Assembly (NCBI GenBank): GCA_937911295.1
Contig: CALDQE010000073.1
Location: 22,352-86,351, forward strand
Direction of reading: 5' to 3'
Origin: an uncultured Verrucomicrobiota bacterium
Lineage (GTDB): Bacteria > Verrucomicrobiota > Kiritimatiellia > RFP12 > UBA3636
Length of the DNA: 64,000 bases
The first letter of the stretch is position 1. The number at the start of each line of letters is the position of its first letter. Of the stretch, positions 31,681 to 62,609 are shown one piece after another. The notes under the pieces were generated by a model. The model worked only from the letters and a program-made list of their open reading frames with translations. It made no database searches and was not told where the DNA came from. The position numbers and the translations under genes are program-made.

Positions 31681-33285
31681 CTATTTAGTAGGGTTTGTAT
31701 ATTTCTCTTTACCATTGATACCAGTAATATAAACCTCAACGCGACGATTCTCTAGGTTGCCATTCACCGGATCATTTTCTACCTTTGGATGTCTAAAGCC
31801 ATAGCCAACATATTTTAGACTTTGAGCAGGAACACCCCTAGCAATTAGGTAATCATATACAGCCTTAGCACGGCTAGTAGAAAGCTTTTCATTATGGCTG
31901 CGGCTAGACTTTGCACGCTTATCTGCATGACCTTCAATAATAGCTGTTGAACCTGGATTATCAAGCATAGCCTTTGCTACCTTATCGATTTGGGCAAAGA
32001 ATTCTGGCTTGATAATAGAAGCATCTGTATCAAAGTTAATCTTTAGCTCAAACATAAGAACATCATCGCTCTTTACTAGAGGCTCTGTCTGGTCATAAAT
32101 GACCTCATGACCATCGCGAACACCACCCTTATCAGTATCTGGGTCACGTGGATTTGTCTTATAATCAATTACCTCAGCACCGTCAGAAAGGAAATCCCAA
32201 TCTGAGTCTGGATTTAAAGGGTCTGTATTATGCTTTTTAACTTCCTCACCATCTGTTAGACCATCATTATCTGAATCCTTAACTAGAGGGTATGTTTGGT
32301 GAGTGAAAACCTCTTCACCATCCTTTAGACCATCGCCATCAGTATCTGGGTTATTAGGATCTGTCTCAGTTTTAATAACCTCTTCACCATCTGTTAAGCC
32401 ATCGCCATCAGTATCTTTGTTTAGAGGATTTGTTCTATACTTTTTAACTTCATCACCATCGATTAAGCCATCGCCATCTGTATCAGCAACAAGAGGATTT
32501 GTTTTATACTTTAGCACTTCCTCGCCATCTGTTAGGCCATCATTATCTGAATCTGGGTCATTAGGATCTGTTTTGTAGATATCCATTTCATCGATATCTG
32601 ATAGACCATCGCCATCGGAATCTGTCAAAAGTGAGAATGTTGGGTCTTGAGCAATCTTATCTGCACCCCAGCGCCATACAACGCCGACATCAGCTGTCAT
32701 ATTAAATTCTGTATTATAACCAGCTAGGTTAATACGAGCATCAGCACGTAGGCTCCATGTGTCGCTTAGGTGATACATGATACCGCCACCGCCACGAATA
32801 GTCATGCTTGTAGCACCATCGCCAGTGATATCTTCGCCATAGAGGGTAACACCTGCACCAAAGGTTAGATATGGGTCAAGGCGCTCTAGACGAGTAAAGT
32901 GGAACAATGCATCTACATAGAATTGAGCCATATAAGTGCTATCAAAGTATTTATCTCCCTTAGAGTATGAATTACCTTGAGGCATATCAATCCAGTTGCC
33001 ATTTTCGTCTTTACCAACATTACCACCAATATTTTCATCTAGAGACGGAGCGAAGATAACACTGCCTTCAATGGTCCACCACTCATTATATTCATATCCT
33101 AGACGACCAGTAATGAACATACCATCCTTAAGACCTTCATCTCCTTCAAAGTTGGCAAAACCGATACCAGGGCTAAAATACCATTTACCAAACTCTTTTT
33201 CTTCTTGAACATCTGCATTATCAGCAAATGCTGGCATAGCTAGCATAGCTGTGAGAGCTATGAATGATAAAGCTAACTTTTTCAC
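31681..33285 (-). CDS. OmpA-family outer-membrane protein with ~10 thrombospondin type-3 calcium-binding repeats between the N-terminal barrel and the C-terminal OmpA domain.
   Basis: Seen: signal peptide, repeated D.D.DGL.DG.E(V) units (aa ~200-390, nt ~32100-32690), and C-terminal OmpA motifs (GHAD...NRRVEV). Confidence 0.75.
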
Positions 33286-43570: not shown

Positions 43571-43616
43571 AAAAAACAAAAAAGGGTAAGCTTTTTAGAC
43601 TTACCCTCTTTTTTAT
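43571..43616. terminator. Bidirectional rho-independent terminator downstream of the lipoprotein/giant-protein transcript.
   Basis: Seen: A-rich run, AGGGTAAG-ctttttagac-CTTACCCT 8-bp stem, T6 run. Confidence 0.6.
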
Positions 43617-43636: not shown

Positions 43637-44467
43637 TTATTCTGCAGAAACACTACCAGCTGTTGTACCACAGAAGCCATTTACATCATAAATTGATGCA
43701 CCAGCCGTCCATGTTGCATCTAGGCGATTCTGACCTGTGCGATCATCAAGTGTACCAACCATTGTATTGCCTGAACCAGATGCATTAAACTGTGCAGAAT
43801 ATGTTACTGAGCTTGCATTTGAATAAACACTAACTATTGTAATAGCACCGGTCATTGTTACACCATTAGATGTTGTAAACCTTAGGTTAGAACCAGCCTG
43901 GCTAACAGTAATTGCTAATACTGCACCACTACCAGAAATTACTGGTGCTGATGATGTATCTTGTGGAATATAAGTAACTGTTACCTTATCACCCTCTTTA
44001 CCCATACCTTTCTTGTAGCCACGAAGTGTAACTGTGTTGCCATCAACCTTTCCTGAACCAGCAATACCACTGCTACCAACCAAATTACCGCTACCGTCAT
44101 TTGTCCATGCTAACTGATTTCCGCCAACTGTTGCAGAAACAGCTACTGAACCAGGTGTTGGTGTAGATGGCAATGTAATAACTGTTGAAGAATTTGGCTG
44201 CCATACATCCTGTGAAATTGTTGTAGATGAACCAGTAGAAACAATAGGTGTTGATGAAGAAGAACTACCGTCCTTTGTTAATACAGCGCAACCGCCTCGT
44301 GCATCATTACGATAAGTACCTGAAAAATTCATTCCTGCAACTGTTTCGCCACCCTCACCATAGCTACCAGACCATGTTGGGTTACCATCAGAAGATGTCC
44401 ACTCACATCCTGCGAATAATGCTGCCACTGCTACTGCTACTGTAAAAGAAATTGCTTTAATTTTCAT
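43637..44467 (-). CDS. Ser/Thr/Gly-rich secreted lipoprotein, unknown function.
   Basis: Seen: signal peptide plus lipobox (LFAGC) and low-complexity S/T/G composition. Confidence 0.5.
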   Translation of the reverse strand: MKIKAISFTVAVAVAALFAGCEWTSSDGNPTWSGSYGEGGETVAGMNFSGTYRNDARGGCAVLTKDGSSSSSTPIVSTGSSTTISQDVWQPNSSTVITLPSTPTPGSVAVSATVGGNQLAWTNDGSGNLVGSSGIAGSGKVDGNTVTLRGYKKGMGKEGDKVTVTYIPQDTSSAPVISGSGAVLAITVSQAGSNLRFTTSNGVTMTGAITIVSVYSNASSVTYSAQFNASGSGNTMVGTLDDRTGQNRLDATWTAGASIYDVNGFCGTTAGSVSAE

Positions 44468-44587: not shown

Positions 44588-47500
44588 TTACTTACCAATT
44601 ACCTCTGAGGTTGAATTTGAGTGAATTACCTCAAACTCTTGGCAATCAACAGTTACATCAATCTTGAAGAAGCCTGTTGACCAATCATCAATTAGTGCCT
44701 CGTCTGGACGCATAATTGCTGTACCAGCCTCTAGCTTGCCATTGATTACCATTGGTGGAGCAACCTTCAATGTATCTACTACCTGCCAATCCTTTGCACC
44801 GAGCTCTGCTTTGTACTTTAGATAGTAGGTAATCTCATTACCAGCAACTACTGCTGGATATGGACACTGAACAAATGGCTTGCCATTCTCGTCAAACTCA
44901 ACTGCAAGTGTTGCATATGGAGTTGACTCATCAGCTGCCTTTGGATTGCTGCCTGATAGGAATTCCTCTAGGTCACTTACACCATCGCCGTCAGTATCCC
45001 AGCTATGTGTATTTGTGAAGGTTAGGTTAATCTCTGCTGCATCTGACAATCCATCACTATCGGTATCAACCATTGTTGGATCTGAGTCAAGAGCACCATC
45101 AGCATACTCCTGCCAAATATAGATACCATTACGGTAATCACGACCAGAGTACTTATTGATATCACCAAACATCTGGTATTCCCATGAATCTGGTAGAATA
45201 TCATTATCTGTATCCTTATCAAAGATTACGATATTTGCATTTAGAGCATCTGCACTACCATTTACTGTATTTGGTAGTACGATTGGCTCAATTGCTTCGT
45301 AAACAATTGGACCAGATAGAGGAGCACCTAATGTAGCAAAGCCCTCTGACTCCCATGTATCACAGAAACCATTATTGTTGCTATCAATGAATGCACGAAC
45401 TACATATTTGCCTCTAGACATACCAACTAATGAATATGTACCCTTAGTTGTTGCCTTCATACGTGCAGCCAATGTTCCACCAATACCATTTGCATGGTTA
45501 GATGATTCTGGAACAACATATGACTCTACAATAATTGGAGCCTTAGTAAAGCTCTTCTTATACATATTTAGTTTTGCACCAGCTGCAAGTGGCTGCTGCC
45601 AACGAATTTCAAACTTACCTGTGTCATAGTAAATCTTACCAAAACCAGGATTTTCATTTGAATCGCCCTTTAGCACTCCATCAGAGAAAGTATCGCGGAT
45701 TGTATCAATTACATCACCTGCTGCATTTACAACAGAGAATGAAATTGTTCCAGGATTGATAGCTCCGATTTCTCCACTAGCTACAAGTGAAGTACCATCA
45801 GCTGTCATAATATTGCTTGATGTACCTTCATTATGAACCTTACCAAAGTAAGTAATTGTGCCATTTACTGAGTAATTCATACGAGGTGTACCCTCATTAT
45901 TAACAGTAAATTCACCAGAAACTGACTGTGGCTTAATACCTGTACCATTAATATACTCTGTAATAGTATATGTATAGGTATCATCTGGAAGTAGGAAGAA
46001 CTTACCTTGTCCGCCCTCTAGCTGAGGGAAGGTTGAATAGTACATATCAACATCTTCTAAATCACCATGACGTACTGGTAATAGAATAACATCATTATAT
46101 ACTGTTGCTCCAGCACTATTCTTGATAACAATCTTAGCACCCTGATTGCGATGATCCATCTGCCACTTGAATTCAACAAGTGCACCATTCATCTCTTCAA
46201 CTGGAGCAATGATTGCCATCTTACGGCGATTATTTACACCTAGGTTCCACTCAAGCATACCTTCGTGTATCATTTCATCACCAGCCCATACTTCGTATTC
46301 AATAAATGGAGAAGTGCTTGTTCCAAATGGAATACCCTTTAGACCTGCATTAATAATATCACCCTCATGCAACCATGTACGTGGAGCACGAATCTTGATT
46401 GTATCACTATCACCTGTTGGGTTAATAATTACTACCTCATACTCATCAGCTGTTACTGTTGGAGCATTTGTAGAATCAACATTACCCCATGAAATACGAG
46501 GATAACCCCACAAATCATCAGTCATAGCAATCTCAACATTTGCACCATTTACACTGATTAGTGTTGGGCGCTGTGTTGATAGACCACATGGCTCACCTGC
46601 ATCATACTTATAGTCTGAATTCAAGTCCAAGAAACCAAAGAAACGGTTATTTCCAGAACGTAGGTGTCTACCCTCTGTCAATGCTGGCATTACATCAGAC
46701 TTAGTGAATGGGAAGGAATATGTATATGAGTAGTCAAGTGAAACAGTCTGACCTACCAAAATTCCTCCGATAGAACCATCAATAATTACACCAGAAACAT
46801 AATCAATATAGAAGTTTGTTCCTTCAAATTGACCCTGGTTTTCATTGATTGGAGATTCACCAACTGTTGTTAATACACCAGGAACTGGTATTCCTTCCTC
46901 ATTAACTGTTGGAGGTGTCATATATGTCAAACGTGCTGTACCAGCCTTAATCATTGTATTTGGAAGTACACCCTGACGATCCTCACCAACCTGAACAAGT
47001 ACGCTCAATAGGTTAGGTAAATCTGTCCATAGACCATCTAGTTTACCACCCATATCCTTACCAGCATGCTTTTCGCTGAAGGAATGAACTGTAATGCATG
47101 GTACATCCACAATATCTCCATTGTAATGGAATGTGAATGTAATATTTGGCATTGGGAAGGATAGAGTATCATTTGCTCTAGTACCAGCAATGTACTCCTC
47201 GATATTTGTCCAACCATCTGCATCCTTATCTTCATGAGCATCGAACTTATCTGCATCGAGACCATTATCCAATTCCCATGCTGATGGCATACCATCACCA
47301 TCATCATACATATCACCATAGGTTAGGCTCTGCTCTGTATCACGCTCAAAGTAATCAGAAATGCCATCACCATCTGTGTCTGCACTATTTGCAGAAGTAC
47401 CAGCTAGATATTCAGCATAGTTGTCTAGGCCATCACCATCCAAATCACCAAATGCACCGTCATCGCCATCTGCTGAATATGGATCCATACCCATTAGAAT

Positions 47501-50500
47501 TTCATAGTAATCTGGGATACCATCACCATCTGAATCAAGTGATGATACATCATAACCAACACCATTACCATCCCATAGCTCTGTATCAAAATCAGCTACT
47601 GCTCCACCTAGTGGAACCAAATCTGAGAAGAATGGAATTAATTCATAATTTCTAGATCCGTATAGAGAACCACTAAAGAAATCCAATGAAATTTCATATT
47701 GTGGCTCCAAGCCTGTACGATATACCTGAGCATATGGATTTGCTGAATTGTTAATCAATCTTGGATCAATTAGCTCATCAAGATTAATTTCTGATGGATC
47801 CACGATCTCTAGTTCATAAACAGCACCCATTGTTGCGTAAAGAACATAATCCTCTTCTTTACGAACTCTATAACCAAGCAATTTATATTCCTGATCAAAT
47901 ACTGCTAAGAAGCGGCGAGATGACAATGGTGGATATTGCGGAACATGAGCCGCTAGGTTTTCTGCAAGTGGTATATAGCCAAGATCTCCATCGTATACTG
48001 ATGACTTGACTAATGAACTTGCCCACCAAGGAATTTGATAGCCAGTAGGTACGCCCATACGCTCACCAATTCCTAGTGGAACCTGCTGGATATCTGTTGG
48101 ATATACAATAGAATCATCTTTACGTGTAGAATCAATAATTACATCAGGTAGATTATTGAAATTGTAGTAGTAAAGAAGCTTTTGTGGGAAATCTGCTATA
48201 GCTGTAGCATATGGGAATTTATTTTCCTCCTCCCATGCAAATCGAGCATGATTAATTGCATATACCTCATCAAGTGTAAAGCTCTTCTGATATGCTGCCT
48301 GAATTTCTGCTGCTGAACGAACACGGTCCCAAACGCGAACCTCGTCAATCCAACCATGGAAGAAATCTGATAGCACTGGCTCTGCCCAATTTGGTGCTAA
48401 TGCTCCTGCCATATAGTAAATTGGTGAAGTACCAATCTTACCATCTGGATTCTCTTCAGATGCACCAAGTACAATTGGTGCAGGATAGTAATCAAAACTA
48501 TCAAGATATGAGATAGAAGGTTGTGCAGAACCTACTGCATTTGTAACAACCAAATCCTGAGTTCCAGGGAAGTAACCGGTGCATGGCTTTAAGTCACAAG
48601 CAACTGTCTTGATTAGTGCACCATTTAGATATAGGTTAAACTTATTGTTAACTGAATCTAATGATACTGCTACATGATACCATGTATCCTTAGCAATTAA
48701 GCCATTCTCTATAGAAGTTTCAGTAGAGAATGTTGCCATTGCATCATTCTGGAATTCAGCACGTATTGTTCCTTCTGGTGTTAGCTGAATGCGGAAGGTA
48801 CGGCGAATTGCTGTCTCAATTGTACCAGTCTGGTCATCAATTGGCATACGAACTGGGCGCTCGATAAGTGTCTGATCCTTACCAGAAGCTGGATTTTCAG
48901 ACTTAAACCATAGCTCTACAGTGTATGCTGCCATAGCCCATTTATCATGGAAGAATGGAATACGTGTGCGCATTGCAGAATCAATACCATCAAGGTAAAT
49001 TGCCTTACGGGAGTGAGGATCTGTTGGATCCTTATTATCTGACAATCCACGTAGGTCTGTTGTTAAGCATTCCTCACGATCATTGATATTATCATTATCT
49101 GTATCAAGACCCTCATTTATTTCAAAATCCCATATATATTGTGGTGCTACAAATGATGGCTGTGGTGCTTCTTCTGCATTTGCCGCATACTTTGCTAACC
49201 ATGGCCAAAATGATAGCTCTGGCAACAAATTATTAGGGAATGCTGGATGCTCTTTGTCTGGTAGAATAGTTGTATATTCACCATAAGCATAGTAAAGATT
49301 TACATGGCTTTGATTGTAAGAAGTATCCGTAATCCAATATGGTGTTGGATCTGTATCAGGATAGATATCCTGACCATATACCTCAATTGATTCCTCACGG
49401 TTATTCAATCCATCTTGATCAACATCAGCATATGGAGAGCCAATGCTCCATGGCTTTGTTTCTGATAGGTATGGATATGAATAACTAGCTATTGGAATCA
49501 TTGTTCCATAGAAGAAACGACCAAATGGATCACTCTTACCCCAAATTGGATTCAAACCATGGAATATCTCCCAGTAATCATCCATACCATCACCATCAGA
49601 ATCTGGTGACATAGGATCTGTTGTTGTCAATACTGTATGGAAATATAATGGTTTTGGAGCAATCTCCTTATCAATCAAAAATGCAGGATCCCAATTATAT
49701 GGATTCTGACCATAACAACGCTGTAGCTCGTTAATTGAATGAGTTAATCCCTCACCAAAATCTGGATTTGAGCTACCATAATGCTTTGAATATACATAAT
49801 AATAAACCAAACCAAAATCTGGAATTGGGAAAATTTCTAGAAGAGCTGATATTACAACTAACTCATCATTGAATGTCTTAATTGTGATATCTGGATTTGC
49901 AGCTACAAATTCAGTATAGAATTGCTCATAAATATCTCCATAAGCTGCTGCTGCTGACATAGCCAATACCGGATCAACTCTTGGGCGAATAATATCAAAT
50001 GCATAACGATCGCCATATCCAAACCATTCTAGATTATCTGGATTAAAGAATGGGTCTGTTAGCATATCAAGATGATTCTTAGCAATCATAAGCTGTGGCT
50101 GCCAAGCATAGTTAGCACCAGTTAGATATTCCTGGTAGTTTGCAAGACCATCACAATCAGGGTCACCATATGGCCCACCCTGACCCATTGGATCATATCC
50201 AAATTTGTTTAGACCATAGATAACCTCCCAGCCATCTGGTAGATTATCAAGATCTGTATCAACACTGTTTGGATCATAGTTTGTTATTTCTGTTGCACCC
50301 TCTTCACCAAACTCTAAACCATCCATCAATCCATCATAATCACTATCTGGATTCCATGGATTTGTTGAACTTGTACGCTCAGTCCAGCCCTTAGAAACGT
50401 CTGGAGTATAGATAACTACTGTATTGGCTGCTGTGCCGATTAGATTATTACGTGCATCGTAAACATCTGTTACTTCAACAACTGCCGTTGGTGAATTACC

Positions 50501-53425
50501 AAATTCATCCTTATTTAGAAGACCATCATTGTCCCAATCGTCCTCTACCTGTGGTAAGCTTAGAGGATATTGGATTGCATTAACACCAAAACCAGAATCT
50601 AGAGGATTAATACCATGGATAAGCTCCCAACCATCAAATGAACCATCATTATCACTGTCTGTATGGCGTGGGTTTGTTGTCCATGCCATCCATGTTTCAG
50701 GTGAGAAATTAAAATCTGTATTACCTAATGATAATACCTGCATATATTCATGGTAATAACCAACCATAAATTCGTCATAGTTTGAAAATGCTGTTCCTGA
50801 AATTCCAGCAATATTTGGATTATATGGAGCATATGCCACACCATTCCACTGACCTAGACCACTTGAATTTAATAGATATGCCATCAAGTGTGATGATGTT
50901 CCATCTGGGCATTGTTCTGTTGGATTTAACTTGAAAATACCATCCTCAAGAATTGCAAATTTTGCATCTACCATTTTTGGTTCAACTGCATAGGTTGCCT
51001 CAATAATTAGCATAGAATCTCTATCAGGGTTACCACCTGCACCATGCTCACCAGCAGCACTTAATGGATCAAGATAATTCAATACTTCCCAGCCATCTGG
51101 TAGACCATCTTTATCTGTATCCCAATGTAATGGATCTGTACCTAATGTATATTCCTCAACCAAGGTTAATCCATCATTATCAAAATCCTCCATTGAATAG
51201 TTATTTGGTAGTAATGGATCAAAAGCATCAAGCAATAATTGCTTAATTGTTGCCTTGTTTTCATCAGATGTATAATCATCTAACTTAAGAATTGAAGCTA
51301 TATGCTTAACAATTGAGCTATCTGTAAATTCTCTTTCTTTAAAATCGTATGAGTAGAAGTTATTGCCAAAAGCAATCCACTTATCAAATCCTACCTCATA
51401 CATAATGGTTGTCCAGAAATAATATTCCCAGCCATCACTCATACCATCACCATCTGAATCATATCCAGATAAATCTGTTTGTGGATCTTCAGCAGAAGGG
51501 ATAGTACCAGGTGAATTTCCGCGTAGAGCAGGATCTGTTTCTGGTGTTACAATCTGAACATCTGCATAACGTCTCCAAACACCATCTCCACGATCCTCTT
51601 CTAGACCACGTGCCTCAATCAAATTGTTAAATGGATTATTTTCTGATGGGAAATAACCTATCGCTGTTGGTGTTACCTTAATAGGATATTCATAAACACG
51701 AACACTTCCTACGCCTGTAACAACATTTGGTACCTCAATTAATGAAGCATTTGGTAAATAATCACCATCTGAATTACCATTTGATCCATAAATTTTTGTT
51801 GGCTGAATTGCTGCTACTGTGCTTAAATCCTCATTCTCATCATCCATTGTAATAACGGTTCCAGAATTGAAATAACGCATTTCCCACTGGTCACCCAATT
51901 GGTCAGCATCAATATCACCAAAGCCTTCACCAGGATAATATTCCTTAGAGAAGAAATATATTACTGTTCTATCTGAAATATCATCAACTGTTTCACCCAT
52001 GTGGATAAGTGTAGATTTTCCACTATGAATAATTGACTTACTTGTTGAATCAAGAACCACCTCATCATCACCAGCAGACCAACCAAATGGGAAACTACCT
52101 TCATCTGGAATTGGCTGAACTGTTACTGCTGACACAGCACTGTTACCTGTTGATGAAAAACGATTTCCTTCTACCTTCCAAGTAATACCAGCAGGCTCTG
52201 TAAATTTAAATGTACCAGAACCAATACCATTTAAACCACGCAAGCCTTTTTCTGCCTCGTTTACAAGTAAAAGTGCTCCGTTCTCTACTTCCATTTCAAA
52301 TACACGAACTGCAACACCACCATCACCATCGTCTACTGTAAGTGTAATCTGATATGTTCCAGCTTGATTATATGTGTATGTAACATTCTGTCCAGCTACA
52401 TTGCCTTTTCCATCACCAAAGTTCCAATTGTATGACAAAGGATCATATTGTGATGGAACAACATCACGAGCAGAAGCTGAGAAGGAAACTGGCTGCCCGA
52501 TTGCTGTCTTAAATGTTGTACCCTCTGCAGGTGTATCAATTGCTGGATTTTCATTATCAGCAGAAATAGGTAATATACCTATTAGTCCATTATCTCCCTC
52601 AAGAATAAGATCTGATGTATAGAAATTGTCCAATGCCTTTAGCTTTGATAATGTAACTGTATCCTTATTTGCTGGCCATGTCAAGGTTGCTGGACCAGAA
52701 ACCAATGGAAGCCCATCTGCATTTGTAGGATATGTTATTGTGTAAATAACCTTTGTTTCTGGAGCTCTATTTACTGAAATTATAACATCCTGATACATTG
52801 AGCCTTCTTCAACAGAAAGTGATGAAGGTACAAAGACTAATGAACTCTCTACCTTAATCTGAATGTAATTTGGTGCTGTAGCATCTGTTCCGTACCAATT
52901 ATTAAATTCTGTTACAGGATTTGATGGGAAGTTTGTAATTTGAGGCTTGTCATTTGTAGGAACCTTGTAAACTGAATCAGTACCTGTATCGCCATTTTCG
53001 TAAACAAGATTTGCTGTAATATTATCTTCTCCAACAAAATTTAACAATGCCTTTCCTGAAAATTGAACAAAACCTAAATCATCAGGTTGAATTGTATAGT
53101 TAAATACCATAAGAGAAGCATCACTTGTAACATATGCTGCCTTTCTAGTTACAGTACCTATTTTAAAATTCAAGGTAGGCGTACCTGTTACTGTAAAGCT
53201 TTCAATCATTGGTGTTTCACCATCAGCATTTTCTTTATCGGAAATAAATTCAAGATAGAATTTAATTTCCCCGCTAGCGAAAACAAACTGACCCTCAGGC
53301 TGTGTTTCACCATCCTCATTAACATACTGAATGCTGCTAATTAAAACGCTTGCATTTGCGAATGAAAATGCAAACATAACAAACAATAATAATGTTGATT
53401 TTATTAGTTTTTCTATATTTTTCAT
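44588..53425 (-). CDS. Giant (2945-aa) secreted cell-surface adhesin-like protein with a PKD domain, a LamG/ConA-like lectin domain and ≥13 dispersed thrombospondin-type-3-like calcium-binding motifs.
   Basis: Seen: signal peptide. PKD block YNWNFGDGKGN...YTYNQAGTYQITLTVDDGDGG (aa ~330-380, nt ~52285-52530). LamG block TVELWFK...WYHVAVSLD...FNLYLNGALI (nt ~48550-49050). Many D.D.DG(L/I/M).D..E motifs (DTDKDGLPDGWEV, DSDGDGMDDYWEI, SLDSDGDGIPDYYEI, DTDGDGVSDLEEF and others). Confidence 0.7.
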   Translation of the reverse strand: MKNIEKLIKSTLLLFVMFAFSFANASVLISSIQYVNEDGETQPEGQFVFASGEIKFYLEFISDKENADGETPMIESFTVTGTPTLNFKIGTVTRKAAYVTSDASLMVFNYTIQPDDLGFVQFSGKALLNFVGEDNITANLVYENGDTGTDSVYKVPTNDKPQITNFPSNPVTEFNNWYGTDATAPNYIQIKVESSLVFVPSSLSVEEGSMYQDVIISVNRAPETKVIYTITYPTNADGLPLVSGPATLTWPANKDTVTLSKLKALDNFYTSDLILEGDNGLIGILPISADNENPAIDTPAEGTTFKTAIGQPVSFSASARDVVPSQYDPLSYNWNFGDGKGNVAGQNVTYTYNQAGTYQITLTVDDGDGGVAVRVFEMEVENGALLLVNEAEKGLRGLNGIGSGTFKFTEPAGITWKVEGNRFSSTGNSAVSAVTVQPIPDEGSFPFGWSAGDDEVVLDSTSKSIIHSGKSTLIHMGETVDDISDRTVIYFFSKEYYPGEGFGDIDADQLGDQWEMRYFNSGTVITMDDENEDLSTVAAIQPTKIYGSNGNSDGDYLPNASLIEVPNVVTGVGSVRVYEYPIKVTPTAIGYFPSENNPFNNLIEARGLEEDRGDGVWRRYADVQIVTPETDPALRGNSPGTIPSAEDPQTDLSGYDSDGDGMSDGWEYYFWTTIMYEVGFDKWIAFGNNFYSYDFKEREFTDSSIVKHIASILKLDDYTSDENKATIKQLLLDAFDPLLPNNYSMEDFDNDGLTLVEEYTLGTDPLHWDTDKDGLPDGWEVLNYLDPLSAAGEHGAGGNPDRDSMLIIEATYAVEPKMVDAKFAILEDGIFKLNPTEQCPDGTSSHLMAYLLNSSGLGQWNGVAYAPYNPNIAGISGTAFSNYDEFMVGYYHEYMQVLSLGNTDFNFSPETWMAWTTNPRHTDSDNDGSFDGWELIHGINPLDSGFGVNAIQYPLSLPQVEDDWDNDGLLNKDEFGNSPTAVVEVTDVYDARNNLIGTAANTVVIYTPDVSKGWTERTSSTNPWNPDSDYDGLMDGLEFGEEGATEITNYDPNSVDTDLDNLPDGWEVIYGLNKFGYDPMGQGGPYGDPDCDGLANYQEYLTGANYAWQPQLMIAKNHLDMLTDPFFNPDNLEWFGYGDRYAFDIIRPRVDPVLAMSAAAAYGDIYEQFYTEFVAANPDITIKTFNDELVVISALLEIFPIPDFGLVYYYVYSKHYGSSNPDFGEGLTHSINELQRCYGQNPYNWDPAFLIDKEIAPKPLYFHTVLTTTDPMSPDSDGDGMDDYWEIFHGLNPIWGKSDPFGRFFYGTMIPIASYSYPYLSETKPWSIGSPYADVDQDGLNNREESIEVYGQDIYPDTDPTPYWITDTSYNQSHVNLYYAYGEYTTILPDKEHPAFPNNLLPELSFWPWLAKYAANAEEAPQPSFVAPQYIWDFEINEGLDTDNDNINDREECLTTDLRGLSDNKDPTDPHSRKAIYLDGIDSAMRTRIPFFHDKWAMAAYTVELWFKSENPASGKDQTLIERPVRMPIDDQTGTIETAIRRTFRIQLTPEGTIRAEFQNDAMATFSTETSIENGLIAKDTWYHVAVSLDSVNNKFNLYLNGALIKTVACDLKPCTGYFPGTQDLVVTNAVGSAQPSISYLDSFDYYPAPIVLGASEENPDGKIGTSPIYYMAGALAPNWAEPVLSDFFHGWIDEVRVWDRVRSAAEIQAAYQKSFTLDEVYAINHARFAWEEENKFPYATAIADFPQKLLYYYNFNNLPDVIIDSTRKDDSIVYPTDIQQVPLGIGERMGVPTGYQIPWWASSLVKSSVYDGDLGYIPLAENLAAHVPQYPPLSSRRFLAVFDQEYKLLGYRVRKEEDYVLYATMGAVYELEIVDPSEINLDELIDPRLINNSANPYAQVYRTGLEPQYEISLDFFSGSLYGSRNYELIPFFSDLVPLGGAVADFDTELWDGNGVGYDVSSLDSDGDGIPDYYEILMGMDPYSADGDDGAFGDLDGDGLDNYAEYLAGTSANSADTDGDGISDYFERDTEQSLTYGDMYDDGDGMPSAWELDNGLDADKFDAHEDKDADGWTNIEEYIAGTRANDTLSFPMPNITFTFHYNGDIVDVPCITVHSFSEKHAGKDMGGKLDGLWTDLPNLLSVLVQVGEDRQGVLPNTMIKAGTARLTYMTPPTVNEEGIPVPGVLTTVGESPINENQGQFEGTNFYIDYVSGVIIDGSIGGILVGQTVSLDYSYTYSFPFTKSDVMPALTEGRHLRSGNNRFFGFLDLNSDYKYDAGEPCGLSTQRPTLISVNGANVEIAMTDDLWGYPRISWGNVDSTNAPTVTADEYEVVIINPTGDSDTIKIRAPRTWLHEGDIINAGLKGIPFGTSTSPFIEYEVWAGDEMIHEGMLEWNLGVNNRRKMAIIAPVEEMNGALVEFKWQMDHRNQGAKIVIKNSAGATVYNDVILLPVRHGDLEDVDMYYSTFPQLEGGQGKFFLLPDDTYTYTITEYINGTGIKPQSVSGEFTVNNEGTPRMNYSVNGTITYFGKVHNEGTSSNIMTADGTSLVASGEIGAINPGTISFSVVNAAGDVIDTIRDTFSDGVLKGDSNENPGFGKIYYDTGKFEIRWQQPLAAGAKLNMYKKSFTKAPIIVESYVVPESSNHANGIGGTLAARMKATTKGTYSLVGMSRGKYVVRAFIDSNNNGFCDTWESEGFATLGAPLSGPIVYEAIEPIVLPNTVNGSADALNANIVIFDKDTDNDILPDSWEYQMFGDINKYSGRDYRNGIYIWQEYADGALDSDPTMVDTDSDGLSDAAEINLTFTNTHSWDTDGDGVSDLEEFLSGSNPKAADESTPYATLAVEFDENGKPFVQCPYPAVVAGNEITYYLKYKAELGAKDWQVVDTLKVAPPMVINGKLEAGTAIMRPDEALIDDWSTGFFKIDVTVDCQEFEVIHSNSTSEVIGK

Positions 53426-53468
53426 ACCTTATACCTTCTCTTATAGGTTATGTTTATTTAAAATTAAC

Positions 53469-54059
53469 TTATTCAGCTTTTTCCTCAGATGACTCTTCTG
53501 TAGCCTCTGTTTTAATAGCACGTGATTTCATATTTAAACGAACTAATTCTGAAGATTTTTTAGTTTCTTCAGATAACTGCTTTTGAATTGATTCCTTAGC
53601 TGCTACTAGCTTCACATACTCTGCATCTTCATCTATTATTTTCTGAATAGCAGCCTTTTTTTCTGTAAGCTGCTTCTCTAAATCAGCAATTTCTGTTGAC
53701 AAAACTTTTGCTTCTTCATTTGTCTTGATAATTGTATCCTTATGAGCAGCTATTTCTTTCTCTGCCTTCTCTAGATTAATTCGTATAGCTTCTGTTTTTT
53801 CCTTCTGAAGCTTCATCATTGCAATGCGCTTTGTGGTCTCTTTATCATTTTGCTTATAAAATGCATTCTTATTGTTTGCCTCTAAACGCTCTTTAATTTT
53901 TGCACGACGCTCAGCAACCTTTGGATCAACTGTGCTTTCTTCTGCAGTAGCCTCTGCAACTGCATTAGTATTGGTTGTGGTCTCTGTGGCTTTTGGCTCT
54001 TCTTTAGCAAATACAGAGAAACCAATAATAACAAATAATAAAATTAAATTTTTCTTCAT
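53469..54059 (-). CDS. Secreted Lys/Glu-rich coiled-coil protein, unknown function.
   Basis: Seen: signal peptide, then heptad-like K/E-rich sequence throughout. Confidence 0.45.
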   Translation of the reverse strand: MKKNLILLFVIIGFSVFAKEEPKATETTTNTNAVAEATAEESTVDPKVAERRAKIKERLEANNKNAFYKQNDKETTKRIAMMKLQKEKTEAIRINLEKAEKEIAAHKDTIIKTNEEAKVLSTEIADLEKQLTEKKAAIQKIIDEDAEYVKLVAAKESIQKQLSEETKKSSELVRLNMKSRAIKTEATEESSEEKAE

Positions 54060-54079
54060 ATCTGATTTTCCTAAATAAT

Positions 54080-55501
54080 TTATTGAGCTATTCGTCTAAA
54101 TCTAAAGAAACTTGAATTGATGCTTGAAGCATCATTCTGATCTACTAATATTTTTATTGGTATATTCAAGAAACATTCCTTTGTGGATGATGCTTCTGTA
54201 ACTTCTCCTGAAATATCAAAAACCTCATCACTTCCAACAAAATTATTTCCTGTAATAGTAAATTCACCTGCTGCCTCTGGTACATTTATATTGGCTTGCA
54301 ATGCTGGAGCCCATGCAGCCTCTGTTAGCTCTTTCTTATAATCTAACATATAATTACCAACTGGATTCTCCCCAGATAATGAAACAACTAAATTTGTCAT
54401 GGTTATTGCTGTAAATTTGATTTTTACATCATATTCTTCATCTGGCAAAACTTCCTCTTCTTCAGTAAAAACACGATCATCAATATTATATGCTGCTACT
54501 CGCCTATTATTACTATCCGCTACTAATATTACTGATTTGCCATCTACGCCTGTTGAACAATATGGAAAACTTAACTTTGATTTAGCTGTTCCTGAATTTC
54601 CTAGCTTCAACAAAAATTTTCCAGAATCAAAATCATATAGATTTATACTACTTGTGGCTCTATCTGTAACAACCAATGATAATTTTCCTGATTCTGTTTT
54701 CCAAATATCAACATCTGTTGGTTGAACTAAATTACTTTCTGTTGAATCATTTACTAATGGTAATGTTTTATCAAGTGCTACAGTATCAGACAAAATACTA
54801 TATACATATACTTTCTTAGCCAACACATCTGCTATTGCTAAATATTCTGATGCTCCATCTGAATAGTAATCTATTCCAGCAAATGAATTTTGGGATAATG
54901 GTGTGCCAAAATAAAAAACTTTTCCAGTAATATTATCGGTAGCCATATCCAAAAACAAAATATGTGAACCATCAGCAGCTATTGCATATACTTTATCACC
55001 TGCATTATTTATGGAAATGCCAGCATATTTATCCTCTACGGTTGCACTAAAATCAAAATCTAAAGCAACTGTCCCGTTGGTATTTTTAACTAATTTATAT
55101 ACTACAAATCTTGTATAAGTGGAAAATTGATCCATCAATACTACTAAATTCTTTTCGTTATTGTATGCTATATCATAAGGATACGAAATAACCCCATCTA
55201 TTGTTGATTGACCCTTGTGTAAAAGTAAAAGCTTGCCAGCTACATCATTACTATAAATTGCTATTGCATTTCTTCCGGCGTCTGCAACAAATATATAATC
55301 CTCTGAAGCTGCTATTCCTCGTGGGCGAGCACCGCTAACAGTTTGAGAATATTCAGCCGTTGGATTTATATATGTAAATTGAGTATATGTATCCGCATAT
55401 ATTGCAGGTACTTGATATATAACTGCAATTATATTCGCTAGTATAAGATTATGGCAAATTTTCTTTATATTACTGCCAATTATACTCATTTTATACTCCA
55501 T
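54080..55501 (-). CDS. Secreted beta-propeller protein with NHL-like repeats.
   Basis: Seen: recurring blades with motifs P.GIA / YDIAY / AGISIN / FAGIDYY / PTDVDIW. Confidence 0.4.
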   Translation of the reverse strand: MEYKMSIIGSNIKKICHNLILANIIAVIYQVPAIYADTYTQFTYINPTAEYSQTVSGARPRGIAASEDYIFVADAGRNAIAIYSNDVAGKLLLLHKGQSTIDGVISYPYDIAYNNEKNLVVLMDQFSTYTRFVVYKLVKNTNGTVALDFDFSATVEDKYAGISINNAGDKVYAIAADGSHILFLDMATDNITGKVFYFGTPLSQNSFAGIDYYSDGASEYLAIADVLAKKVYVYSILSDTVALDKTLPLVNDSTESNLVQPTDVDIWKTESGKLSLVVTDRATSSINLYDFDSGKFLLKLGNSGTAKSKLSFPYCSTGVDGKSVILVADSNNRRVAAYNIDDRVFTEEEEVLPDEEYDVKIKFTAITMTNLVVSLSGENPVGNYMLDYKKELTEAAWAPALQANINVPEAAGEFTITGNNFVGSDEVFDISGEVTEASSTKECFLNIPIKILVDQNDASSINSSFFRFRRIAQ

Positions 55502-55721
55502 TACTGTTAGTTATTTTAAAAAAATATATCACAATGAGGGTATAGTACCCCTACAAAAGATAATGCTACCATAAGATTAAATGTAAAACAATAGAAAACT
55601 AGCTTTTTTAGGGAAAAATGAGTTAATTTTTTTTTGAGGTTTATATTTATAAAATAAAAAAAACACCCCTTTTATGGAATGTTTTTTTCTTTAATAAATC
55701 ATAATTGCTTGATTTTGAATA

Positions 55722-56261
55722 CTATATTTCTTCAGAATTACGCTTTGCCTGCTCTACCCAACCTAGAACATCCTCAGTATAACCTTCTGGAAGTTCTAAA
55801 AGCTGCTTTCCACAATTACCACAGCATCCTCCTGGTGTCTGAAGCTTAACTCCACAATGAGGACATACTTTAATCAAAATTTCACCACATATCGCACAAC
55901 GATTGGAAAAGCCTGCTTTTCCTGTAGGCTTGAAATATACATTCATTCCTACTATATATGGCTTATTACTTGGACATTCAAAATTAGCACACATTGCCAC
56001 CTCTGGCTGTAATGGTGCTAAAGCTGCAGCTGTCAATACTGGTCCCATGCTCGGAATCAGTGCCGATAAATTAATTTCTAATAATTCTGCTAGCTTCTCA
56101 TAAGTAGACTCTGAAATGGCATCTACTCTGCCACCCTCCATCATACTAATTGCTGATTGCTTGCAGCCTACCTTATTTGCTATTTCTATTTGGGTAATAC
56201 CACGCTCCAATCGAGCCGCCCTTATTAGCTTTGGTAGTTGTTTTAATATTTCCTGTTTCAT
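55722..56261 (-). CDS. XRE-family helix-turn-helix transcriptional regulator fused to a C-terminal Cys-rich zinc-ribbon domain.
   Basis: Seen: HTH block LERGITQIEIANKVGCKQSAISMMEGG. C-terminal Cys pairs spaced CAIC...CPHC...CCGNC. Confidence 0.6.
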   Translation of the reverse strand: MKQEILKQLPKLIRAARLERGITQIEIANKVGCKQSAISMMEGGRVDAISESTYEKLAELLEINLSALIPSMGPVLTAAALAPLQPEVAMCANFECPSNKPYIVGMNVYFKPTGKAGFSNRCAICGEILIKVCPHCGVKLQTPGGCCGNCGKQLLELPEGYTEDVLGWVEQAKRNSEEI

Positions 56262-56517
56262 GCGTATTAGTATGCAATAAATAATATCAACAAATCAAGC
56301 ATAACTTATCAACAGCTTGTTGATATTCTGTTGATAATTATTGTTGATTACTAAATAAATATCTTAAAAACAATAACTTATATGTTATCAACAATCTTGA
56401 TAATAACCTGTTAATAAACCTATTTTAATAAATATTATTTATAAATGATTGAAGCTATTGCCTCAAAGCATAGCCTCTCTTGACACATATGGTCTATTAA
56501 ATATTAGTTATTAACAA
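56262..56517. promoter_or_regulatory. AT-rich region with a cluster of TTATCAACA/TGTTGATAA and TGTTAATAA 9-mers, including an 8-bp inverted pair. These are DnaA-box-like sites and/or operators for the adjacent regulator.
   Basis: Seen: TTATCAACA at 56306-56314 and 56385-56393. Inverse copies at 56317-56325 and 56329-56337, TGTTGATTA at 56342, TGTTAATAA at 56409-56417. Confidence 0.35.
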
Positions 56518-58594: not shown

Positions 58595-59110
58595 TTATTC
58601 CTTTTCTTTGTTTATCTGCTTTAAGCCTTCTAAAGCAAGGCGAGCATGTCTTACATTTAAATTATTACGTAAATTTTTTTCTGCTAATTCTTTTATCTCA
58701 GGTGACTTTAATATTTCATTTCTAATTTCCTGACGAACCTTAGCTAATTCTGCTGCCAGCTTTTTTTCTTTGTCGCGCAATGCATTAACTTTTTCTGAAT
58801 CATTCTGTGGAACAAATCCAATACACTTCCTTTCATATTCCATCCGTGATTTTCTAGCCTCAGCTCCTTCATCTATTATATACTTTTGAAGTGCTTCAAT
58901 TTCATTTTGTATTGCTTCGTTTGATTGCTTTGACCAATACTCTCTATATTTCAAAAAATCAGCATCTGTTCGAGGTAAATTTTTCTCTACTGTATTTTCA
59001 ATTAAAGTTGGTGTTTCAACAGGAACTGCTTCATTTAATTTTACATCTTCTGAAAATACAATTATTGAATTTAAAATAACTATGCTTACTAATAATATCT
59101 TATTTTTCAT
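58595..59110 (-). CDS. Secreted coiled-coil protein, unknown function.
   Basis: Seen: signal peptide, then E/K/R-rich helical sequence. Confidence 0.4.
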   Translation of the reverse strand: MKNKILLVSIVILNSIIVFSEDVKLNEAVPVETPTLIENTVEKNLPRTDADFLKYREYWSKQSNEAIQNEIEALQKYIIDEGAEARKSRMEYERKCIGFVPQNDSEKVNALRDKEKKLAAELAKVRQEIRNEILKSPEIKELAEKNLRNNLNVRHARLALEGLKQINKEKE

Positions 59111-59113
59111 AAA

Positions 59114-60214
59114 TTAAATTCCTGGACAAATTTCATTTGCTCGTGGATACAAAGCATCCATTTCTGCTTTAAATTGATTTAATTCAGGTGTAGGAGTAAT
59201 TTTAATATCTTCGCCACTTCCTAAATTCTTTGTGCGCCATGAATCATATTTTCGCTGTGCATCATTTAAAGTTTTTCTTGCGGTTACCTCTTCAAGCTTA
59301 AGCTTATGTATTTTATTCTCAAGATTTGCTCTTGCTGCTCCACTTGTTGTTTTACGCTTTTCCTCTAACTCATCAGATTCTTTTTTTAAATTTTTATAAA
59401 CTTTTACTGCATCATGATACTCCGTGTAATGTGGATTTTTTTTAATCTCTTCTTTGCGTAATTCAGTTAATAAGCTTTGATACTTTCCACGTGCAGTACA
59501 AAAATCAATTATTGTTGTTTTATCTGGATGTACTTTATTATTGTAAGGTCCACGGAACATTACTAAATCAGATTCCTTTATAAAAAATTCAACATCTGGA
59601 TTTATAATTCCATCCTTTATTTGATGACATTGTATCAATGCAACATTCTTCATAAATATATGATCTCGCGTCTCTACTACAATACCACCTAAAATAGAAC
59701 CAATTTTATTTTTTTCTTTATTATAAATATCAGTATTAACTGCAACTACAGCCCAATTTGGTCCATCATAATCTTCTGGAATTTCTGGCTCTTCAAATAC
59801 CTCTTCCTCTACTACCTCAACTGTCTGCTGAACAGCTGAATCTGGTTCAACTACCTCTGTGCTATCACTTGTCTCTTTTGGCTTATTTGAATCACCATCT
59901 ATAAGTTCTACTACCTTACGTTTTGTTGATGTAAATACAGATTCTACTGCTACCTTTTCTATTTTTGTTTCTTTAACTTCAGATGATTCTTCAAAATCAT
60001 TTAAATCTTCTTCTATGTTTACTTCAACATTATTCATAGAACTATCTAACAAAACTATTTCTTTTCCAGTAACTCTTGAATAAATTTCTTTATTATAAAA
60101 ATCTGGCGAAAATGATTTCAAAAAATAAAGTACAGCACCAAATATTACAATAAAAATTATTGTCCTGATTATCGAAGAAATAATAAATGATAAATTTACT
60201 TTAAACATAATCAA
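59114..60214 (-). CDS. Membrane-anchored protein with an acidic linker and an uncharacterised C-terminal domain.
   Basis: Seen: N-terminal TM helix (IIRTIIFIVIFGAVLYFL), a Glu/Val-rich linker, and a C-terminal coiled-coil. No family recognised. Confidence 0.4.
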   Translation of the reverse strand: MIMFKVNLSFIISSIIRTIIFIVIFGAVLYFLKSFSPDFYNKEIYSRVTGKEIVLLDSSMNNVEVNIEEDLNDFEESSEVKETKIEKVAVESVFTSTKRKVVELIDGDSNKPKETSDSTEVVEPDSAVQQTVEVVEEEVFEEPEIPEDYDGPNWAVVAVNTDIYNKEKNKIGSILGGIVVETRDHIFMKNVALIQCHQIKDGIINPDVEFFIKESDLVMFRGPYNNKVHPDKTTIIDFCTARGKYQSLLTELRKEEIKKNPHYTEYHDAVKVYKNLKKESDELEEKRKTTSGAARANLENKIHKLKLEEVTARKTLNDAQRKYDSWRTKNLGSGEDIKITPTPELNQFKAEMDALYPRANEICPGI

Positions 60215-61520: not shown

Positions 61521-62609
61521 TTATCCACGCAATGGCATAATAACATACAAGAATGGAATGTCACTCTTGATTAGTCCAGGACTGGATTCTTTATTTAATT
61601 CAATATAAATTACATCGCTAGTTAAATTACGCAATGGATCCATCATAAATTCTGGATTAAATATTGTTATAATCTCTGGACCCTCATATTTAATAGCAAT
61701 TGTATCCAATGCTTCACCAACTTCAACTGCAGTTACTGAAATTGTAAGCAAATTATCAGCAAAGCATAAACGCATTGAATTTGATGTCGGTGTTGTAGAT
61801 ACTGACATACGCTTCAATACAGCTAATAGCTCTTCTCTATTGATTTCAATTCTATAATCACATTTTGCTGAAACAAATTTCTTAAAGTCTGGATATGAAC
61901 CACTCAATACTTTACTTGAAAGTGTTAAATCTCCAAATGTAAATATTGCCTGATTTTCCTTAATAATAATCTCAATGTCTCCCTCAGTACCCAAAACTCT
62001 TATTAGTTCTTGAACTGCTTTAGTAGGAAGAATTGAATCACGATTATTTTCCACAGGGAATTCTACCTCTGTCTCATATAATGCTAATCGACGGCAATCT
62101 GTAGCAGCACAAATTAATTTGCTATTCTCAAAATTCATCATAACTCCATTTAGAATAGCTCTTGAATCATCTGTTGATGCTGCATATACTGTCTTTTTAA
62201 GCATATCTAATAATCTACCTTGTTGAAGTGTATATGAAACTCCTCCATCAAGTGTTTGTTTTGCAGGAAATTTATTTGCTGGTATACCAAGTATCTTTGA
62301 ACGATATGATCCACAACTCATACTAGCTGTCTCATCTGAAGCATCAATCGTTACAACTCCACTAGATAGCTCGTGAACAATACCAGTTAATTTACGAACT
62401 GGAAGTGTTATTTCACCTTGCTCAACAATTTCAGCCTCACAACTATATTCCATAGTCATATCTTGAGTTGTTGTTCTAAAGAATATCTTATCCTCAGAGG
62501 TATAAATTAATACATTTGAAAGAATTGGTTCTGTTACCTTTGTTGGTACTATATTTTGAACCTTAGCTAGTGCGTTATACAATGTTGGTTGAGGTATTCT
62601 TATTTTCAT
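61521..62609 (-). CDS. dnaN: DNA polymerase III beta sliding clamp.
   Basis: Seen: three-domain clamp length (362 aa), N-terminal MKIRI...L, C-terminal ...YVIMPLR typical of DnaN. Confidence 0.85.
   Translation of the reverse strand: MKIRIPQPTLYNALAKVQNIVPTKVTEPILSNVLIYTSEDKIFFRTTTQDMTMEYSCEAEIVEQGEITLPVRKLTGIVHELSSGVVTIDASDETASMSCGSYRSKILGIPANKFPAKQTLDGGVSYTLQQGRLLDMLKKTVYAASTDDSRAILNGVMMNFENSKLICAATDCRRLALYETEVEFPVENNRDSILPTKAVQELIRVLGTEGDIEIIIKENQAIFTFGDLTLSSKVLSGSYPDFKKFVSAKCDYRIEINREELLAVLKRMSVSTTPTSNSMRLCFADNLLTISVTAVEVGEALDTIAIKYEGPEIITIFNPEFMMDPLRNLTSDVIYIELNKESSPGLIKSDIPFLYVIMPLRG

Follow-up and report, generated by a model that had tools for sequence, protein, structure and literature searches.

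What does a bacterial protein of 2945 amino acids (aa) with a predicted export signal do in the cell envelope, and which of the genes around it share in its task? The question is raised by a stretch of 64,000 nucleotides of contig CALDQE010000073.1 (assembly GCA_937911295.1, positions 22,352 to 86,351), referred to below as the window, which derives from a metagenome-assembled genome (MAG) of a gut or rumen member of the Kiritimatiellia. A prior reading of this DNA (the original prediction) had described a surface-protein cluster at 44588–56261 of the window, composed of the giant protein, a lipoprotein, a secreted coiled-coil protein, an NHL beta-propeller and an XRE-type regulator with a zinc ribbon. 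We propose that four of these genes, those of the NHL, helical, giant and lipoprotein products, encode an exported envelope complex built around the giant, a calcium-stabilized and lectin-bearing protein. The genes, given as open reading frames (ORFs), and the boundaries of the module are the following.

43578–43612, minus strand: intrinsic-terminator-like hairpin (14-bp stem and T-run) closing the NHL–helical–giant–lipoprotein unit
43637–44467, minus strand: gene of the partner lipoprotein (ORF of 276 aa)
44588–53425, minus strand: gene of the giant exported protein (ORF of 2945 aa)
53469–54059, minus strand: gene of the small secreted helical protein (ORF of 196 aa), 43 bp upstream of the giant gene
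54080–55501, minus strand: gene of the NHL beta-propeller protein (ORF of 473 aa)
55656–55689, minus strand: second terminator-like hairpin (14-bp stem and T-run) in the gap between the XRE and NHL genes, the upstream boundary of the module
55722–56261, minus strand: gene of the XRE-family helix-turn-helix protein with a Cys-rich C-terminus (ORF of 179 aa)

All five ORFs lie on the minus strand at exactly the coordinates that had been predicted for them, and the strong terminator placed by the original prediction at 43571–43616 corresponds to the first hairpin; its interval of 44588–56261 omits the lipoprotein gene that its own text counts in. The gaps within the NHL–helical–giant–lipoprotein series are 20, 43 and 120 bp, and no terminator-like site was found inside the four-gene unit, the 120-bp gap between the giant and lipoprotein genes included. 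Because of these short gaps free of terminators, and of the hairpin between the XRE and NHL genes, the four genes are read as one unit and the XRE gene as separate from it. The genes are indeed co-oriented, but this is uninformative, since the entire window is co-oriented (42 of its 44 ORFs of at least 150 aa are on the minus strand).

The features of the giant on which the argument depends are listed here, with the profile hidden Markov model (HMM) or other evidence for each.

53351–53425, minus strand: signal peptide, aa 1–25, ending FSFANA/S (read from the sequence; conserved in relatives)
52292–52519, minus strand: PKD domain, aa 303–378 (PKD_4, E 3e-17, 62.9 bits against a cutoff of 27)
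47126–52528, minus strand: conserved family core, aa ~300–2100, ~1800 aa (per-residue coverage, 76 distant loci)
48146–49015, minus strand: LamG/pentraxin-like jelly-roll, aa ~1471–1760 (Laminin_G_3, 6e-18 on a slice)
44963–51916, minus strand: span of 20 TSP3-type calcium loops, aa 504–2821 (pattern counts against shuffled sequence; TSP3_bac)
45563–45844, minus strand: beta-sandwich homologous to the middle domain of the lipoprotein, aa 2528–2621 (i-E 0.0018)
44636–44986, minus strand: C-terminal FN3-like beta-sandwich, aa 2814–2930, 'Y.L.Y..eL....W ... GFFK[IV]' (HMM, 1.3e-17)

The giant is identical (100%) to protein P0001, which occurs on contigs of NCBI and ENA that reach 173 kb in length, and has six close cluster representatives at 74–87% identity. 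All family members P0001–P0022 carry a Sec-type N-terminal signal peptide except P0011, the called start of which looks truncated. The signal peptide of the giant is of the signal peptidase I (SPI) type, with no lipobox, and the protein itself has no membrane anchor. Its scores exceed the profile cutoffs for PF18884, PF13385 and PF18911/PF00801, and the LamG assignment extends to the fold. Laminin_G_3 (PF13385) gave an E of 9e-17 on the full-length protein, and 62–66 bits against a cutoff of 27.6 when the slices are counted in; the PKD domain matched the PKD structures of the collagenases ColG/ColH at ~1e-8; and TSP3_bac (PF18884) scored 39.1 bits against a cutoff of 25 and was found in five of ten slices of 300 aa. 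An AlphaFold2 (AF2) model was made for aa 1250–2100 of the core. Its LamG part gave Foldseek matches to the pentraxins SAP and CRP, to the LamG domain of PAPP-A and to CBM40 at ~1e-9; this part and one TSP3 stretch are the usable portions of the model, and no fold was assigned to aa 1250–1470 and 1760–1940. The domain mapping that had been suggested as a check, performed here by profile and structure searches, therefore recovers all three of the PKD, LamG and TSP3 types that the original prediction had named.

The calcium loops were counted with patterns of increasing tolerance. The strict D.D.DG..D..E loop occurs 9 times, D.D.D...D 13 times, [DN].[DN].[DN]G..[DN] 15 times and a relaxed 12-mer 20 times, whereas shuffled versions of the sequence contain 0–0.3. 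The forecast of at least 13 loops lies within these counts; their supposed spread over ~2.5 kb was too small, since they cover aa 504–2821, or ~7 kb of DNA. The loops are not stapled by disulfides, because there are only 11 Cys residues in the 2945 aa. Cohesin, dockerin and enzyme domains were not detected in the giant, and no tandem DNA repeats were found.

How far does this protein reach beyond its own genome? We fetched 78 loci of the giant family in a survey that scanned one genome per species. They belong to Kiritimatiellia, Lentisphaerae and Verrucomicrobiota. The two closest come from Kiritimatiellia MAGs of gut and rectum samples (84% and 81% identity); the remaining loci, at 24–50% identity, come from MAGs labeled Kiritimatiellia, Lentisphaerae, Victivallales or 'Verrucomicrobiota'. 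None of the members has an informative name, and our literature searches found this family or gene set nowhere described. The core of aa ~300–2100 is aligned by 39–72 of the 76 distant loci, and by 60–69 of them over most of aa 500–1100 and 1250–2100, with a dip to 16–31 at aa 1100–1250; the N-terminal 300 aa and aa 2100–2650 are less shared. The segment of aa 1250–2100 is collinear with P0008–P0022, proteins of 3600–5100 aa, at 25–38% identity. In close relatives the core is 85–94% identical, and aa 1–200 and 2100–2400 only 57–63%. The core consists of TSP3 loops spaced by non-repeat segments, the LamG domain and conserved stretches without annotation. On the strength of the per-residue coverage and of the collinear alignment, the family is defined by this large conserved core, of which the domain libraries describe the LamG domain and the TSP3 loops only.

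The extreme C-terminus of the giant is a second element that the libraries do not describe, since it falls outside every Pfam model. A profile HMM made from 59 distant giants delineates a domain of ~100 aa, 'Y.[IVL].Y..SL....W ... GFF[RK]V', at the end of most giants and of the second large proteins that adjoin some of them. Against 1.84 billion representative proteins the profile gave 502 hits at E ≤1e-3, most of them at the extreme C-termini of proteins of 2000–6500 aa; a word-index homology search with the same domain alignment returned a single hit. Some proteins of 300–900 aa contain 3–8 tandem copies, with weak matches to fn3 and Tissue_fac. The domain is an FN3-like beta-sandwich that is not demonstrably a sorting signal, given the tandem copies in smaller proteins and its FN3-like look. 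We also considered a sorting domain common to the C-termini of the giant and of the NHL protein. The two ends read '...L....W...FF[RK]x' with the same order of motifs, yet the similarity is not significant (E 0.13 for the NHL end with the HMM, and a profile–profile probability of 3.4%), and this candidate was rejected.

The gene downstream of the giant encodes the lipoprotein, a putative partner. It has the lipobox of a bacterial lipoprotein (ALFAG/C), within which G20 and C21 are invariant in 40 homologues. In the same alignment the lipobox is followed at once by an invariant G-C-(E)-W, and then by W32 and, at positions 46–53, M/NFSGTYR, such that CEW...W...NFSGTYR is a start signature specific to this family. 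Sequence searches of Pfam, NCBIfam and the PDB gave no match to the lipoprotein. An AF2 model from the homologue alignment (predicted local distance difference test, pLDDT, of 78.5) consists of a beta-sandwich at aa 82–166 and an eight-stranded up-and-down barrel. BLAST clustering places the family in 23 other loci, and its HMM finds it in 26 loci. Of the 84 giants followed by 1 kb or more of sequence, 22 have a member among the next three genes downstream. Its HMM (positions 72–159) also finds a domain inside the giants, with 1.5e-12 and 1.7e-11 in two distant members (L014 and L059), and the corresponding segment of the giant in the window is aa 2528–2621. At the level of sequence, nothing ties the giant to the lipoprotein more strongly than this predicted module, common to both.

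The small protein encoded upstream of the giant starts with the signal peptide MKKNLILLFVIIGFSVFA, and its composition is 52% E/K/Q/A/R with 2% P+G. It had been described as a secreted coiled coil. The signal peptide agrees with the first word; the second is probable from the composition, on which it mainly depends, as the heptad test was weak (7 windows; shuffled sequences had 1.5 on average and 21 at most). Its family (F3) is present in 9 other loci, and an analogous helical family that is anchored as a lipoprotein (F1) in 16. The two are related by profile–profile comparison (probability 80%, E 1.5e-5), one ORF is matched by both HMMs, and a member of one or the other is directly upstream of 30 of the 78 giants having upstream sequence. 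The window holds two further proteins without a family match. At 58595–59110 (minus strand) there is a 171-aa protein with a signal peptide and a charged helical body; as a paralogue of the 196-aa protein it was rejected (BLASTP E 6, HMM E 0.13). The protein of 366 aa at 59114–60214 (minus strand) starts with a membrane helix, contains an acidic stretch and is helical at its C-terminus; a homologue of it is directly upstream of the NHL gene in locus L011.

The fourth product is an NHL propeller by PF01436 (22.6 bits against a cutoff of 20) and by three stretches that match the Thin/TRIM71 NHL propellers of the PDB at 6e-13 to 1e-7. Its N-terminus resembles a signal peptide, and its C-terminus is a family-specific beta domain of ~120 aa, the last residues of which are FFRFRR. 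The ATG at 55489 is probably the true start; the absence of the exact 473-aa sequence from the protein collection suggests that a different start is called there. Homologues are found upstream of the giant in 10 other loci, a count taken from BLAST clusters only, since the HMM of the long members is contaminated by domains shared with the giant (98 hits).

Are these proteins partners of the giant, or do they merely live next to it? We called and clustered the ORFs of each of the 78 loci. All four genes are retained in closely related genomes, and the partner genes recur beside distant giants of 25–46% identity, where the other neighbors are unrelated housekeeping genes (ackA, pta, kpsF, pepP, M16 peptidase). 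That the synteny is kept at this distance, and that the lipoprotein has a domain in common with the giants, supports the assignment of the lipoprotein, the helical protein and the NHL propeller as putative partners of the giant, as the original prediction had surmised for the flanking proteins. The opposite view is that the genes are neighbors by chance or shared ancestry only, that the giant acts alone and that the small proteins flanking it are functionally unrelated to it. The partner families do stand beside only 22–30 of ~80 giants, and related MAGs can share a gene order by descent with no link in function. We nonetheless consider this view very unlikely, as the partners persist while all other neighbors differ, as the lipoprotein shares its domain with the giants, and as the intergenic gaps are tight and without an internal terminator.

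The survey also revealed other arrangements around the giant. Eleven loci (L018, L024, L025, L030, L032, L039, L044, L046, L050, L056 and L067) show a sister arrangement, in the order helical lipoprotein, giant of ~3450 aa, second protein of ~1500 aa ending in '...W...RF[ML]RLKV', and Xaa-Pro aminopeptidase; one of them, L044, is labeled an uncultured Akkermansia sp. MAG. In L038, L042, L051, L052, L065 and L078 the conserved order is giant, ackA, pta, a kpsF-like gene, a 240-aa secreted protein and a 575-aa PilM-like protein. The giants of L017, L020–L023, L033, L034, L040, L043 and L071 have no FN3-like end, and carry repeated 'GDYDGDGRTD...W' (FG-GAP/VCBS-like) units instead; they still keep the downstream 'GCEW' lipoprotein. 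Two family members were binned to unrelated phyla, L035 (record title Limosilactobacillus gorillae) and L036 (Armatimonadota), which is probably binning contamination and not horizontal transfer.

How might the four products work? All four are predicted to be exported, in keeping with what had been assumed for the structural proteins, and would cross the inner membrane by way of Sec, as their Sec-type signal peptides or lipobox indicate. The ~20 TSP3 loops would then bind Ca2+ and stiffen the non-repetitive chain of 2945 aa, by analogy to thrombospondin/COMP and to the gliding protein CglD. The LamG/pentraxin-like jelly-roll, together with the N-terminal PKD domain, may bind a ligand, for which the fold suggests a glycan as the most likely candidate. 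The lipoprotein, lipid-anchored in the outer membrane, may tether or dock the giant, as adjacency and the shared beta-sandwich suggest; the helical protein and the NHL propeller could be stoichiometric partners or assembly factors, a role for which adjacency is the only pointer. The most likely role of such a complex would be adhesion at the cell surface to host or dietary polysaccharide, or its capture, by a glycan degrader of the gut. We give about even chances to the complex being a membrane-tethered surface adhesin or glycan-capture device.

Several observations weigh against this proposal. We infer the surface location of the giant, for which Sec export is the sole predicted transport step, and this is the weakest step of the scheme. 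No route across the outer membrane is apparent nearby, as we found neither a signature of the type 1, type 5 or type 9 secretion systems (T1SS, T5SS, T9SS) nor a gene of the type 2 system (T2SS) among the scanned ORFs of the window, that is, those from 10.5 to 62.6 kb, starting above the ORFs of the first 10.5 kb. The TSP3 repeats are not in themselves proof of an extracellular location here, because an OmpA-like protein of the same window has them in its expected periplasmic linker. The core of the giant is conserved and non-repetitive and stands in a housekeeping neighborhood, unlike typical adhesins, which evolve fast and are repetitive. The AF2 model of the core has an overall pLDDT of 50.6 and is confident for the LamG domain only; the eight-stranded barrel of the lipoprotein is generic, in that OmpW, avidin and designed barrels score equally; and the partner genes were detected beside a minority of the fetched giants, though many contigs end early. 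The OmpA-like protein (31681–33285, minus strand; 534 aa) is an outer-membrane beta-barrel with six TSP3_bac repeats (2.4e-45) and an OmpA C-terminal domain.

Much of this would suit a scaffold that is periplasmic or spans the envelope, in which an inward-facing lipoprotein docks the giant, the helical protein is an Lpp-like spacer and the propeller is TolB-like, the whole being a core structural element of the envelope in Kiritimatiellia and Lentisphaeria, and not an adhesin. Sec export alone is demonstrable, no outer-membrane secretion system or signal was found, and the TSP3 repeats of the OmpA-like protein set a precedent for the periplasm. Outer-membrane lipoproteins face the periplasm by default. 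In 16 loci the small partner is itself a lipoprotein, with a helical body, and the core is conserved across classes, without repeats, in a housekeeping context near dnaN. The domains of the giant point the other way: PKD, LamG/pentraxin and FN3-like domains typically belong to proteins outside the cell, and the N-terminal 300 aa and aa 2100–2400 are variable (57–74%, against 85–94% for the core), as expected for exposed parts. Moreover, a calcium-dependent protein of 2945 aa would be unusual in a periplasm of low free Ca2+. We regard this alternative as unlikely, but as a serious rival. Another reading, which we find decidedly doubtful, is that the four products are a previously unrecognized core envelope element of Kiritimatiellia, Lentisphaeria and related Verrucomicrobiota. 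It would be a calcium-dependent skeleton in the periplasm or a coat at the surface, vertically inherited and needed for the architecture of the envelope, and not an accessory adhesin.

The giant could also be shed. It would then form an extracellular matrix or scaffold, comparable to a cellulosome or 'planctosome', and organize exopolymer or enzymes around the cell through Ca2+-dependent, dockerin-like TSP3 contacts. The TSP3 loops do resemble the Ca2+ sites of dockerins and EF-hands, and the giant has no membrane anchor of its own. TSP3-rich giant proteins of other bacteria of the Planctomycetes–Verrucomicrobia–Chlamydiae (PVC) group have been read as scaffolds (10.1101/2023.11.21.568195; PMC6461901), and cultured Kiritimatiellae are reported to make abundant exopolymers (PMC7356697). 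The dedicated lipoprotein partner argues for attachment to the membrane, however, and cohesin, dockerin and enzyme domains were not detected, so that shedding seems to us quite unlikely. Attachment of the giant at the cell surface is the reading that we favor.

Does the XRE gene regulate this unit? The helix-turn-helix of the predicted XRE/zinc-ribbon regulator is secure (HTH_3, E 3.4e-10, 40.2 bits against a cutoff of 23). The zinc ribbon fell below the cutoffs (DZR_2 18.3 bits against 27, DZR 16.1 against 27.3), though four Cys pairs are visible in the sequence (C91/C96, C122/C125, C133/C136 and C147/C150). The gene is found beside the module only in the two closest loci (L001 and L002); L005, whose giant is 46% identical, keeps the order GDSL–NHL–helical–giant–lipoprotein without it. 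The window contains three exact copies of TTGTTGATA, all at 56285–56394, at most 110 bp upstream of the XRE gene, and none upstream of the NHL gene. This array is a candidate operator array for the XRE protein, and its restriction to the region upstream of the XRE gene suggests autoregulation, and not control of the operon, for which a shared operator was sought and not found. The copies alternate in orientation, and there are near-copies at 56301–56314 and 56340–56351. With the hairpin that follows the gene, its own motif and its absence from L005, we do not retain it as a member of the cluster; it is a neighbor and probably a separate unit, outside the conserved module.

The wider surroundings are housekeeping in character. 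The upstream flank holds a B12-radical-SAM enzyme, a GDSL esterase, ribosomal protein S1 and dnaN (61521–62609), and the downstream flank a radical-SAM protein, YebC, CstA and NDK. Among the ORFs of 10.5–38.6 kb there are Mla, LptF/G, sugar-nucleotide and proline genes; a 469-aa protein at 14807–16216 (minus strand) has a formylglycine-generating-enzyme/GldK-like domain, with weak matches to PvdO and GldK. None of the scanned ORFs belongs to a secretion system, the neighbors at 38.5–62.6 kb being housekeeping or small proteins of unknown kind, and no Rfam family was matched.

The interest of the gene set lies in part in its host lineage. In guts, rumen and sediments the Kiritimatiellia and Lentisphaeria are abundant degraders of glycans that have barely been cultured, and to our knowledge almost nothing is known of their cell surface. 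What is newly defined here comprises an exported giant family without a name, the core of which (~1800 aa) lies beyond Pfam and NCBIfam except for LamG and TSP3; a lipoprotein family with an invariant motif after the lipobox Cys and a domain shared with the giant, together with a recurrent helical partner; and a C-terminal FN3-like module in ~500 protein clusters. Should the complex be the main contact of these bacteria with mucin or sulfated polysaccharides, it would be a target for colonization studies; if it is an envelope scaffold, it would be a new element in the cell-envelope architecture of the PVC group.

How does it compare with systems that are known? The judgment of the original prediction that the cluster belongs to no named secretion or adhesin system has stood the comparison with RTX/T1SS adhesins, T9SS substrates, CglD and Amuc_1099, the hallmarks of which the giant does not display. 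The thrombospondin signature domain of Kvansakul et al. (2004) is said to consist of a type 3 calcium 'wire' packed on a C-terminal lectin-like beta-sandwich. The giant resembles thrombospondin/COMP in this calcium-dependent architecture, with many DxDxDGxxDxxE loops beside a concanavalin-like jelly-roll. It differs in that its loops are of the bacterial PF18884 type, with long non-repeat inserts between them and no disulfide stapling, in that EGF and coiled-coil oligomerization domains are missing from the same chain, and in that the jelly-roll is central and not C-terminal. With the RTX/T1SS adhesins (LapA, SiiE, MpIBP, FrhA) it shares a length of thousands of residues, stiffening by Ca2+ and ligand modules of the lectin type, and it would resemble them, as it would CglD, in its working principle. 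T1SS substrates have a C-terminal signal, however, whereas the giant has an N-terminal Sec signal peptide and no tandem Ig repeats; HemolysinCabind/RTX did not match it at E up to 1, and no ABC/MFP/TolC or LapG/LapD-type genes are found near it among the scanned neighbors.

The best NCBIfam match of the giant is CglD (NF033765), with 44.4 bits against a cutoff of 400 and only over the TSP3 loops of aa 961–1105. CglD of Myxococcus xanthus is surface exposed and Ca2+ dependent (10.1101/2023.10.19.562135). The two are alike in their repeated DxDxDG loops of the TSP3/COMP type and in being exported envelope proteins that work, or in the case of the giant would work, with other outer-membrane proteins. 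CglD is a lipoprotein adhesin of the gliding apparatus, of 1130 aa, with a VWA/beta-I domain and its MIDAS site, all of which the giant is without (Pfam searches of the giant found no VWA domain); the giant has LamG and PKD domains and a separate lipoprotein partner, with no Glt genes nearby. The Amuc_1099 family (NF042425) gave 29.9 bits against a cutoff of 50, over 49 residues of the TSP3 region, and there is no secretin or PilM-like gene of the Amuc_1098–1102 type in the neighborhood of the giant. A T9SS C-terminal domain is likewise missing from the giant (no match to TIGR04183 or CHU_C), and the match in the NHL protein is internal and of 13.8 bits against a cutoff of 23. Pfam and NCBIfam revealed no SLH or other S-layer anchoring domain in the giant.

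The lipoprotein, for its part, resembles the Neisseria surface lipoproteins and related proteins with barrels of the NHBA, TbpB, LbpB, HpuA and hemophilin type in its modeled eight-stranded barrel, a likeness that counts in favor of the proposed complex despite the generic fold. The sequence identity is 5–12%, the CEW...NFSGTYR motif is that of its own family, and there is no Slam (DUF560) gene near it. Within the PVC group, the dockerin-type or TSP3-rich giants of the Omnitrophota and the 'planctosome' scaffolds of the Planctomycetes are, like the giant, large, secreted and rich in calcium loops, and are read as attachment scaffolds. These proteins have at least 30,000 aa or carry dockerin, cohesin or discoidin domains, with secretion loci as neighbors, and they have the type of repeat, but no core, in common with the family described here. 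The gene set is read as an uncharacterized, lineage-specific variant on the theme of giant calcium-dependent adhesins and envelope proteins.

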